Of a stretch of DNA of 64,000 nucleotides, positions 15,001-18,000 are shown piece by piece. A program made the position numbers. Position 1 is the stretch's first letter; every line of letters starts with the position of its first letter. This DNA is from a virus (Duplodnaviria; Heunggongvirae; Uroviricota; Caudoviricetes), in IMG/VR virus record IMGVR_UViG_2718218360_000008; one strand, given 5' to 3'.

Positions 15001-18000
15001 TAATCGCCAGGTCGCTGGTTCAAATCCAGCAAGGGCCACCATCACAAACCGCCATTAGCTTATCAGGAAGAGCAGACGACACCATAACAGGGTTGTTGGT
15101 GCGGGGCCGGGTCCCCGATGGCGGTCCATTATCGGTATTCTGCGTTGTTAGCTCAGCCGGACAGAGCAATTGCCTTCTAAGCAATCGGTCAGTGGTTCGA
15201 CTCCACTACAACGCGCCACACTTATTTTCCAGGCTCGCTTCGGCGGGCCTTTTTTGTATCTGCGCCACGCCCGGCGCATACCAACCACAGAGCCTTTCGG
15301 GGGTGAGCTTACGGAGTGGTCAGTGTGACTTTCTCTGTGGGCAGATCGCTCCCGGGCGTTGGCTCACCCACCCAAAGGAACGTCACGATGTTTGGAATCT
15401 TCAAAAAGAAAACCCGCAGAGCGGCAACGGAAATTAAAAAGTTTGAAAAACGCGATCTGGCACAGGTGGTGATTAACGCCGCATACCTGGTGGCCTGTGC
15501 AGATGGTGAATGTGAGGCATCCGAGAAAGCGAAGATCGAACAGGTACTGCGTAATCAGCCTGCGCTGTCCGCGTTTACGTCAGAAATTAATGCGATTAGC
15601 GCAACCATTATCGGTCAGCTGGATACGAACTTTAAAACTGGTCGTCGTGCGGCGTTACGTGAGATTGAGGATGTGAAACACGATACGCGTGAAGCGGAAG
15701 ATGTGCTGGATGTGGCGGTGGCCATTGCGGAGGCAGACGGCGAAATTGAGCCGGAAGAGCGCAAGGTGCTGGAAGAGATTGCCGGTGTTCTGGGTCTTCG
15801 TCTGGAGAATCACCTGTGACGGTAAAACTGCGCCTGGCTGTGGCTGCACTCCTGCTGTTTCTGGTGGTGATGGTGGATTTCACCAGCAGAATCATGTCGG
15901 TGCTGGCGGATGGGGTGCTGGTCTGCGGCATTGTGGTATTGCTGTGGCCGGTGATAAAAAGAAACAGCCTGCATAATGCTTGATTTTTTTGTTTGCTGTT
16001 TATTAAAAACACTTCTGCATGGTGAATCCCCCTGTGCGGAGGGGCGATCAGCAACCAGGTATATGGGATAATCGCGGATTCAGGTGCTGATACTGAATTC
16101 ACCGGGAGGCACCCGGCACCATGCTTTGCCACAAAAGTGTTGTTTCTGTTTTTCTCAAACTATCATCGTTATCCCTTTATTTCCGGCTGCGCATGGCGCG
16201 GCTTTTTTTTACGACCAGCCACTGGCAGATGGTCATCCTGTGATTTGATTCCGGTTCCGGCTTTTTAACTCTGTTCCTGTACACGGGAGAAATTCGATGT
16301 CGATTAAACATTATGATGTTGTCAGGGCGGCGTCGCCGTCAGACCTTGCGGAAAAGCTGACACACAAACTGAAAGAGGGCTGGCAGCCGTTTGGTAGTCC
16401 GGTGGCCATAACCCCTTATACCCTGATGCAGGCGATTACAGCAGAAGGTGATGTGGTGGTCAGTGGTGCAACTGAGCCGGATTGGTACTACGTCATCGTA
16501 CTGGCCGGGCAGTCCAATGCCATGGCTTACGGTGAAGGGCTTCCGCTGCCGGATTCATACGATGCTCCGGATCCGCGCATTAAACAGCTGGCGCGCCGCA
16601 GTACAGTGACGCCGGGTGGGGCTGCCTGCAGATATAACGATATTATTCCGGCCGACCACTGCCTGCATGATGTGCAGGATATGAGTACGCTGAATCATCC
16701 GAAGGCAGACCTGAGCAAAGGGCAGTACGGCTGTGTCGGCCAGGGGTTACATATTGCCAAAAAACTGCTCCCGTATATCCCGAATAACGCGGGGATCCTG
16801 CTGGTACCATGCTGTCGTGGTGGTTCGGCATTTACCCAGGGCGCGGAGGGGATATTCAGCGAGTCCACGGGGGCCAGCCAGGATTCGGCGCGCTGGGGTG
16901 TGGGTAAACCGTTATATCAGGACCTGATTGCGCGCACCAAAGCTGCATTACAGAAGAACCCGAAAAATGTGTTGCTGGCGGTGTGCTGGATGCAGGGAGA
17001 GTTTGACATGAGCGCCGCCACCCACGCACAGCAACCTGCGCTGTTTACAGCCATGCTGACACAGTTTCGTGCTGACCTCTCCGTGTTTAACGCGCAGTGC
17101 CATGGTGGCAGTGCTGCAGATGTGCCGTGGATTTGTGGTGACACGACGTATTACTGGAAAAATACATACGCTACCCAGTACGACACCGTGTACGGCGGGT
17201 ATAAAAACAGGGAGAGTGAGGGCGTTTATTTTGTGCCCTTCATGACAGACGGTAACGGCGTCAATACCGCCACTAACGCGCCGGCAGAAGATCCGGATAT
17301 TCCGGCATCAGGATATTACGGTGCGGCATCGAGAACGAATGGAAACCAGGTATCATCAAACCGCCCGACACATTTCAGTTCATGGGCGCGCAGGAGCATT
17401 ATTCCGGATCGTCTGGCAACCGCTATTCTGAACGCAGCCGGGCGCACCTCAGCCTTCATCAGTGGTAAGGCACCGGAAATCAAACCCTCGCCCGGCGGCA
17501 ACACGCCATCGGGTCCGTCTGCAGATACGTCCGTTCGCACAATCTCCCTGCTGCCGGCAGCCGGAGAGGCTGCTGCGCAGGGCTGGAGCATTAAGGATGG
17601 CGGAATTCAGTTGTCAGATGGTGTATTTAAGATCACCAGGCAGAGCAATAAAACCTGGTCCCTGACGCATCCGGTGGATGACGCAATTACCCTGCTGACA
17701 CAGGGCGGCAGACTGACCTGTAAGTTCCGCCTGTCAGGCGCACTGACCAACAATCAGTTCGGGCTGGGGATTTATCTGTATACGGACGCTCCCGTTCCTG
17801 ATGGTGTGGCGATGACGGGTACCGGTAATCCGTTCCTGATGTCGTACTTCACTCAGACCACTGACGGCAGAGTGAATCTGATGCATCACAGGAAAGCCGG
17901 AAACACGAAGCTGGGGGAGTTCGGCGATTACGGTAACGACTGGCAGACGCTGGAGCTGGTGTTCACCGCCGGCAGTGCCACGGTTACTCCGAAACTGAAT

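Follow-up and report, generated by a model that had tools for sequence, protein, structure and literature searches.

The 64,000-nucleotide (nt) stretch of the Caudoviricetes record IMGVR_UViG_2718218360_000008 in IMG/VR, called here in its whole length the window, carries at positions 15388-15983 two overlapping genes, the first for a TerB-family protein of 143 amino acids (aa) and the second for a 55-aa membrane protein. The two are almost certainly the copy, in a lambdoid prophage, of the phage tciA-tciB cassette. This pair is already known, being annotated in RefSeq and GenBank, placed in curated families and named in phage P1; it is therefore no discovery as a sequence feature, and in that respect the analysis changes nothing. 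What is new here is descriptive, namely the breadth and tightness of the tciA-tciB linkage, a very low ratio of nonsynonymous to synonymous substitution (dN/dS) in tciA, the alternative membrane partners of TciA (TerC and a Na+/Ca2+ exchanger among them), and an element resembling the small RNA (sRNA) STnc100 close behind tciB. As for function, our preferred reading, to which we give a probability of roughly 45%, is that of a TerB module which is associated with the inner membrane and affects the homeostasis of its ions or of the envelope while the phage grows lytically.

The gene pair and its identity

The pair and its junction are as follows.

15388..15819, + strand: tciA, 143 aa; ATG at 15388, TGA stop at 15817-15819; RefSeq WP_001302123.1
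15816..15983, + strand: tciB, 55 aa; GTG start at 15816-15818, stop at 15981-15983; RefSeq WP_000216636.1
15804..15819, + strand: predicted translational-coupling junction; GGAG inside tciA, then the GTGA start/stop overlap

In the raw sequence, a Shine-Dalgarno sequence (AAGGAA, 15375-15380) stands 7 nt 5' of the ATG of tciA, and that of tciB (GGAG, 15804-15807) lies within tciA, 8 nt 5' of the GTG. The tetranucleotide GTGA at 15816-15819 is common to the tciA stop and the tciB start, an overlap that would couple translation of tciB to that of tciA, so that both proteins are made together. The smaller gene is missing from the default open reading frame (ORF) listing solely for its length, 55 aa against a default threshold of 60 aa; since it matches a curated family (DUF3927), it is a real family member and not a chance ORF. 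The first-pass annotation had described a TerB-like 143-aa ORF and a 55-aa membrane ORF whose start overlaps its stop codon, and both descriptions hold, the one through the Pfam and PHROG assignments, the sequence match in the PDB and the modelled fold, the other through the raw sequence and Pfam DUF3927.

TciA belongs to the TerB domain family and is a cytoplasmic protein with a single domain of the TerB fold. It matches Pfam TerB (PF05099) over residues 31-138 with 53.4 bits (cutoff 24.4; E 3.7e-14) and PHROG 632 ('tellurite resistance') over its full length (E 1e-68), and its residues 15-137 align with residues 21-144 of the solved Klebsiella TerB (PDB 2JXU, E 2.9e-7). The AlphaFold2 (AF2) model is an all-helical six-helix bundle (predicted local distance difference test score, pLDDT, 83.3; predicted template modelling score 0.78), for which the best PDB matches in Foldseek are the TerB-like 2H5N (probability 1.00, TM-score 0.53-0.60) and 2OU3, with weak E-values (5.5e-3). 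TciA has two D-G-x5-E motifs, D39/G40/E46 and D117/G118/E124, which vary little or not at all among the homologues aligned (14 in one alignment, 40 in another); such acidic duplicates are typical of the TerB domain, and in the TerB literature they are the predicted metal-binding residues. The protein begins with MFGIFKKKTRR, a hydrophobic tip followed by a polybasic stretch, with a net charge of +7 over residues 1-22; its helical body is acidic (net -13), and the isoelectric point (pI) of the whole is 5.1.

The partner, TciB, has a pI of 10.0 and matches Pfam DUF3927 (PF13064) with 62.3 bits (cutoff 25; E 4.3e-17) and PHROG 1470 ('TciB-like', E 4e-30). Hydropathy gives two hydrophobic segments, at about residues 5-20 and 26-47, with a conserved polar D21-F-T-S-R25 between them, and the conserved core reads VDF(T/S)S(R/K)..S..ADG, then W-P-x-x-K near the C-terminal end, with basic residues at both ends. 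From the hydropathy, the roughly 38 hydrophobic residues in two segments and the positive-inside rule, a hairpin with both termini inside is plausible. The first homologue search returned almost nothing but near-identical E. coli sequences; when a profile was run against 1.84 billion cluster representatives, the family proved small, with 123 members, nearly all of 50-65 aa. Among E. coli prophage alleles, dN/dS is 0.018 for tciA (at dS 0.61) and 0.27 for tciB, so both genes are kept as proteins by purifying selection, tciA very strictly.

The tci genes were named in P1 two decades ago. In the P1 record, tciA, tciB and tciC (P1_gp074-076) are three overlapping genes in the C1-controlled ban operon, and the TciA of the window is 40.6% identical to that of P1 at 100% coverage, over all 143 residues of two proteins of equal length (tblastn, phage records). 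The likeness extends to the gene order and overlapping stop and start codons, to a DUF3927 TciB homologue with the common VDFTS...DG...WPxxK core, to adjoining phage tRNA genes, and to membership of a transcription unit kept repressed in lysogens. The differences are that the pair in the window lies in the Q-dependent late region of a lambdoid prophage and not in a ban operon, and that the STnc100-like element takes the place of P1 tciC, which encodes a 35-aa single-pass protein. No tciC was found in the window (tblastn of P1 TciC, best E 1.4; no hydrophobic ORF 3' of tciB), and since tciC is not universal in relatives, the window holds a two-gene variant of the cassette rather than a non-member.

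Closer copies are common. Phage JLK-2012 has a 96.5% identical copy labelled tciA/tciB, P1-like phage-plasmids also carry the annotated pair, and the 801-base stretch around it is 100% identical to many E. coli O157:H7 chromosomes, where the RefSeq labels are 'tellurite resistance TerB family protein' and 'DUF3927 family protein'. Of the complete E. coli genomes, 2697 out of 5426 have a match to this stretch, with as many as 15 matching places in a single genome. With about half of the complete E. coli genomes matching, the residual value of the pair is that it is among the most widespread phage accessory cassettes whose function is a matter of prediction. In P1 itself, a CRISPR interference screen found tciA, tciB and tciC all non-essential (PMC10695390), and the tciABC operon is one of eight variable regions in P1-like elements, having been lost from about half of subgroup 1 (PMC9603915).

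Linkage and alternative partners

Among 181 redundant loci from phage records and IMG/VR, a TciB-family ORF lies directly 3' of tciA in 173, and the two genes overlap by 4 nt in 135 and by 1 nt in 26 of these 173. Bacterial data taken at one genome per species have TciB in the same position, with the same type of overlap, in 13 of 16 loci; these include Franconibacter, Pantoea, Serratia, Pectobacterium and an Aeromonadaceae metagenome-assembled genome, with TciA 46-97% identical to the protein of the window. A more diverse IMG/VR sample places TciB immediately 3' of tciA in 71 of 81 loci. That diversity was obtained only by using Vibrio phage D520 as the query, as a closer TciA alignment retrieved only near-identical E. 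coli prophages, and a Vibrio MS02 query gave no match in IMG/VR.

The pair is present in lambdoid siphoviruses, P1-like myoviruses and virulent N4-like podoviruses (Pollock, FSL SP-058/076), as well as in Erwinia and Salmonella jumbo phages (ChrisDB) and in Pantoea and Pseudomonas phages (LIET2, Nican01). Junction and synteny are conserved even between phage lineages whose TciA proteins share no more than 28-50% identity. The proposal that the TerB gene has a coupled membrane partner and forms a two-gene module with it, which depended on the small ORF being conserved beside the TerB gene in relatives, is thus upheld by conserved synteny and by the conserved overlap of start and stop.

Some members of this collection deserve a separate mention. 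In Pseudomonas phage Nican01 (locus L199, 1935-2117), an unannotated 60-aa ORF begins 3 nt after the TerB gene and carries, as judged by eye, the TciB core motifs IDSVSR...ADG...WPLIKK; an HslV-family gene is found near the pair in this phage and likewise in the Erwinia jumbo phage ChrisDB. 'Candidatus Pantoea communis' (L187, 1843-5085) has four TerB-like ORFs in tandem and, 3' of the tciA-type ORF, a divergent 49-aa membrane ORF of two segments that the TciB hidden Markov model missed. In Pollock, a group I intron (L004, 3059-3411; Rfam RF00028, 101 bits) lies a few hundred bases 3' of tciB, in a stretch that is unannotated in the record.

When 276 TciA-type loci were grouped at 70% TciA identity, 22 clusters resulted, in which the gene beside tciA is distributed as follows.

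TciB: 13 of 22 clusters
Cys-motif single-pass protein of 67-73 aa (Pseudomonas), stop/start coupled: 3 of 22 clusters
TerC-family transporter: 1 of 22 clusters
PF01699 Na+/Ca2+ exchanger: 1 of 22 clusters
other small membrane protein: 1 of 22 clusters
no partner: 3 of 22 clusters

The TerB protein is nearly always partnered by a protein of the inner membrane, in some cases by a known cation transporter, which is a testable lead. Genes for TerC adjoin the tciA-type genes of Vibrio phages MS02 and BUCT194, and in Vibrio phage D520 a 360-aa Na_Ca_ex protein (PF01699, E 1.4e-27) is encoded directly 3' of the tciA-type gene. The MFGxFKKK motif at the N-terminus of TciA is kept in the alignment regardless of the type of partner gene, which suggests a general membrane-binding or partner-independent role for it rather than a docking site specific to TciB. 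TerB domains are of current interest in phage-host conflict, and the survey of partners bears on their biochemical role; they are also present in several anti-phage systems.

Among the alternatives, the Cys-motif protein of Pseudomonas phages and prophages (L007, 1932-2153; L010, 1943-2146; L195, 3441-3644) has the pattern C-x-WYG(Y/W)QTER-x-T(K/R)...VGCMV...W-x-PR. Its gene overlaps that of TciA by 4 nt in L007 and L195 and follows it after a 4-nt gap in L010; it belongs to no Pfam family and is unannotated in phage AF. Vibrio N4-like phages have a terB-terC-terB mini-cassette; together with D520, they are represented by the loci L197 (224-2226), L008 (378-1926) and L196 (1801-3381).

Phage 434 has a tciB (L003, 2112-3344) between the gene for a 247-aa membrane protein without a family and a small ORF annotated as a membrane protein, 5' of the same esterase gene as in the window. 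The 247-aa protein was considered as a hidden TerB and rejected (hhalign probability 0.1%, no Pfam match).

Proposed function and competing explanations

We consider it rather probable that TciA and TciB form a membrane-associated two-protein module; a role for tciAB in ion homeostasis is more tentative, and we hold it at clearly less than even odds. TciB would be an inner-membrane protein whose two ends point into the cytoplasm, and TciA would work on the cytoplasmic side of that membrane, with its basic N-terminus as the probable means of attachment. Amphitropic association of TciA with the membrane is suggested by the polybasic N-terminus and by the analogy to TerB, which is reported to be amphitropic and to form a TerC-TerB complex (PMC11003894; bioRxiv 10.1101/2025.09.30.679545); the arrangement of TciA and TciB would then resemble that of TerB as the amphitropic partner of TerC. 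At the inner membrane, the module would sense or modulate the flux of divalent cations or other ions, and hence membrane or envelope stress. As the slot of TciB is filled in relatives by a TerC-family metal transporter or a Na+/Ca2+ exchanger, an ion-flux role seems the most likely one, with TciB acting perhaps as a minimal ion-binding oligomer or as a small adaptor to a host transporter.

A further step leads to a more speculative and, in our judgement, unlikely extension, by which a TciA-type TerB protein would be a common cytoplasmic subunit with interchangeable membrane partners (TciB, the Cys-motif protein, TerC, the Na+/Ca2+ exchanger), through which phages, virulent ones among them, would reprogramme divalent-cation flux or membrane potential in the infected cell. 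Here TciB would either form a minimal pore that binds cations or link the system to a TerC- or CaCA-type transporter of the host. In a variant of the same idea, the phage TerB protein would serve as a decoy against TerB-based membrane-surveillance immunity (ter phage inhibition, Shango, Dionysus).

The proposal that the module works in lytic growth draws on the surroundings of the pair, which are as follows.

13100-13666: Q-like antiterminator gene (DUF1133)
14224-14937, + strand: AraC-type regulator, just 5' of the tRNA genes
14966-15218: CAT-anticodon tRNA (Met by ARAGORN, Ile by RefSeq), then tRNA-Arg
15231..15260 (hairpin 15231-15250), + strand: terminator-like hairpin and T-run between tRNA-Arg and tciA; 8-bp stem, 6 GC pairs, then TTTTTTGTAT
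15988..16160, + strand: STnc100-family sRNA-like element; full-length match to Rfam RF02076, 104.7 bits (gathering 47); starts 5 nt after the tciB stop
16185..16213 (hairpin 16185-16203), + strand: terminator-like hairpin and T-run 3' of tciB and STnc100, 5' of the esterase gene; 8-bp stem, 6 GC pairs, then TTTTTTTACG
16297-18147: SASA/NanS-p esterase gene, 3' of the pair
18595-18801: class II holin gene

A consensus scan found no sigma-70-like promoter between the two hairpins, the region 5' of tciA included. With terminator-like hairpins on either side and no promoter of its own, the pair would most likely be expressed by Q-dependent read-through after induction; it would thus be made mainly as part of late transcription, 3' of the Q-like antiterminator. 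This is consistent with the C1-repressed position of the ban operon in P1 and with the presence of the pair in virulent phages. Placement in the lytic phase recurs elsewhere, in the early/middle region of the N4-like Pollock, in the jumbo phage ChrisDB and, under C1 operators, in the ban operon.

A number of points weigh against the preferred reading. The sample of loci is biased by the enterobacterial queries from which it was built, TerC and the CaCA exchanger are each associated with tciA in one cluster only, and the promoter and terminator calls come from simple consensus scans. Three TciA clusters have no partner and phage 434 (like 2B8) has TciB without TciA, so the two proteins can exist apart. 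As for the membrane protein, the AF2 monomer is one continuous helix over residues 3-53 (pLDDT 90) in which the expected hairpin is absent; of the 'two-helix' description in the first-pass annotation, the two hydrophobic segments stand by hydropathy, and the helical hairpin is plausible, the single-helix model speaking neither for it nor against it. Only about 6 and about 8 residues of TciB are exposed to the cytoplasm for any contact with TciA. Fusions of TerB to DUF3927 were sought as evidence of physical coupling and rejected, none being genuine: P0126 and P0186 are 93-97% identical to the proteins of the window and are joined by a frameshift at the overlap, and P0252 (with a truncated His_Phos_1) and P0292 (with a truncated ABC_tran) look chimeric. 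Metal binding by the D-G-x5-E motifs of TciA is a prediction carried over from work on TerB, the functions in the P1 record are given 'by homology' only, and no paper with an experiment on the function of TciA or TciB was found in the literature searched.

The pair shares something with the ter operon, the known TerB defence systems, the holins and DjlA, but belongs to none of them. In the terB-terC part of terZABCDE, as here, an inner-membrane protein is encoded right after TerB; TciA has a single domain and is homologous to TerB over its full length, and some phage relatives retain a real terC beside the tciA-type gene. TciB has 55 aa and shows no detected homology to the multi-pass TerC, as Pfam gives only DUF3927 for it; the pair of the window stands in a phage lytic operon, whereas the ter cluster is found in a stress island. 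In 32 kb of annotated surroundings, none of terC, terZ, terA, terD and terE was found beside the pair, the neighbours being tRNA genes and the SASA esterase gene. DjlA is a membrane-anchored co-chaperone of DnaK that consists of a transmembrane (TM) helix, a TerB-like domain and a J domain. It too has its TerB-like domain at the cytoplasmic face of the inner membrane, so that TciB and TciA together resemble a split 'TM + TerB', and residues 87-138 of TciA align with residues 112-164 of NCBIfam PRK09430 (DjlA; E 4.2e-7, 29.8 bits against a cutoff of 162). TciA has no J domain, however, and the membrane segment is a separate polypeptide, TciB.

Anti-phage defence or superinfection exclusion, with TciA as a TerB sensor in 'membrane surveillance' and TciB as a membrane effector that together block or abort infection by other phages, is in our estimate improbable. 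The ter operon offers a parallel in its phage-inhibition phenotype, the pair shares its accessory region of the prophage with further morons, and the variability of tciABC in P1-like elements, with its loss from about half of P1 subgroup 1, also fits. TerB domains are found in defence systems that include Dionysus, Shango and Bunzi, for which 'membrane surveillance' has been proposed as a theme (bioRxiv 10.1101/2025.09.30.679545). These validated systems (Dionysus, DinABC; Shango, SngABC; Bunzi) combine the gene of a TerB-type protein with that of a neighbouring membrane protein, which in Dionysus is pore-forming. The helicase and ATPase genes of Shango are, however, not adjacent to the pair of the window, and neither are the four-TM pore toxin and the MAEBL/TM protein of Dionysus. 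In PADLOC, neither protein has a significant match, TciA reaching only PDC-S48 (E 0.005 over 35 residues) and TciB nothing, with a copy of the database that predates Dionysus and does not cover its models. Expression in the lysogen is doubtful given the flanking hairpins and the lack of a detected promoter, and a dN/dS of 0.018 in tciA contrasts with defence sensors, which typically turn over fast. Pairs of this type are also phage-borne, being found in lytic transcription units of strictly virulent N4-like phages and of jumbo phages. Virulent phages also carry exclusion genes, which counts in favour of defence. The link to phage defence at which the first-pass annotation had hinted found no direct support.

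We regard as quite unlikely a membrane-toxin or lysis-timing pair, in which TciB would depolarise the membrane in the manner of a holin or toxin and TciA would be its co-translated cytoplasmic inhibitor or regulator, as in antitoxin-toxin or antiholin-holin pairs. The order of an acidic soluble protein followed by a coupled basic hydrophobic peptide fits, TciB is about as long as class II holins with two segments and would, if a hairpin, have an N-in/C-in topology, and in lambdoid prophages the pair lies 5' of the lysis genes. Unlike class II holins and pinholins, TciB matches only the DUF3927/TciB families, and none of its matches in Pfam, PHROG or NCBIfam is to a family of holins or toxins; the window has a separate class II holin gene, and in P1, N4-like and jumbo phages the pair lies away from the lysis genes. 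The occurrence of TciB without TciA in phage 434 also counts against a toxin and its inhibitor, and the replacement of TciB by large transporters in some phages fits a transport role better than a toxic one.

Lysogenic conversion of the kind implied by the P1 names (resistance to tellurite or pore-forming colicins, or inhibition of cell division) draws on the homology of TciA to TerB of terZABCDE (tellurite, colicin and phage resistance) and on the PHROG annotation, and it is very unlikely: the names are given by homology only, terC, terD, terE and terZ are not adjacent, terB alone is not known to suffice, resistance being cited for no ter construct smaller than terBCDEF (pLK18; PMC11003894), expression in the lysogen is doubtful, and a resistance trait of the host makes little sense in virulent phages.

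Prophage setting and neighbouring elements

The host prophage is lambdoid and defective, with frameshifted or truncated integrase, RecE and portal genes. The portal gene is the frameshifted one, and those of the integrase and RecE are truncated (window positions 18806-22022 approximately, and 1-4000); at approximately 18806-22022, two truncated genes, one YdfR-like and the other for the major capsid protein, are joined to each other, a junction from which it follows that the lysis and terminase region has been deleted. The pair stands between the Q-like antiterminator gene and the holin gene, and the gene map agrees with the moron-rich late-operon location proposed earlier. In Stx phages, this slot is the one that carries stx. 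The AraC-type regulator resembles YdeO and GadX (NCBIfam E 2e-30 and 9e-25, both below the equivalog cutoffs) and may be one of the acid-resistance regulators of enterohaemorrhagic E. coli prophages.

An STnc100-like element occurs 3' of tciB in 66 of 249 tciB loci, at a median gap of 5 nt, and all of these are of the E. coli lambdoid type; phage JLK-2012 has the same arrangement. It was rejected as a general third part of the cassette, being absent from P1, 434, Pollock and other enterobacterial genera. The element could be an sRNA derived from the 3' untranslated region of the tciAB transcript. According to a 2026 preprint, the usual neighbours of STnc100 are a hypothetical protein and a 'Fels-1 prophage chaperone', and these two may be TciB and TciA.

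Phage tRNA genes on the same strand lie beside tciAB in 127 of the 181 loci, an arrangement shared by lambdoid, P1-like and jumbo phages. The tRNAs vary between loci (Met/Ile2-CAT and Arg, Thr and Gly, Val, Ser, Asn and Gly, Trp and Cys), and the adjacency may merely reflect a shared accessory slot. The window also has a hok/sok module (10498-10822, + strand; Rfam sok, 113.5 bits, with a Hok/Gef coding sequence), and the early region of the same prophage holds a DicF RNA (3238-3289, - strand) that adjoins dicB.

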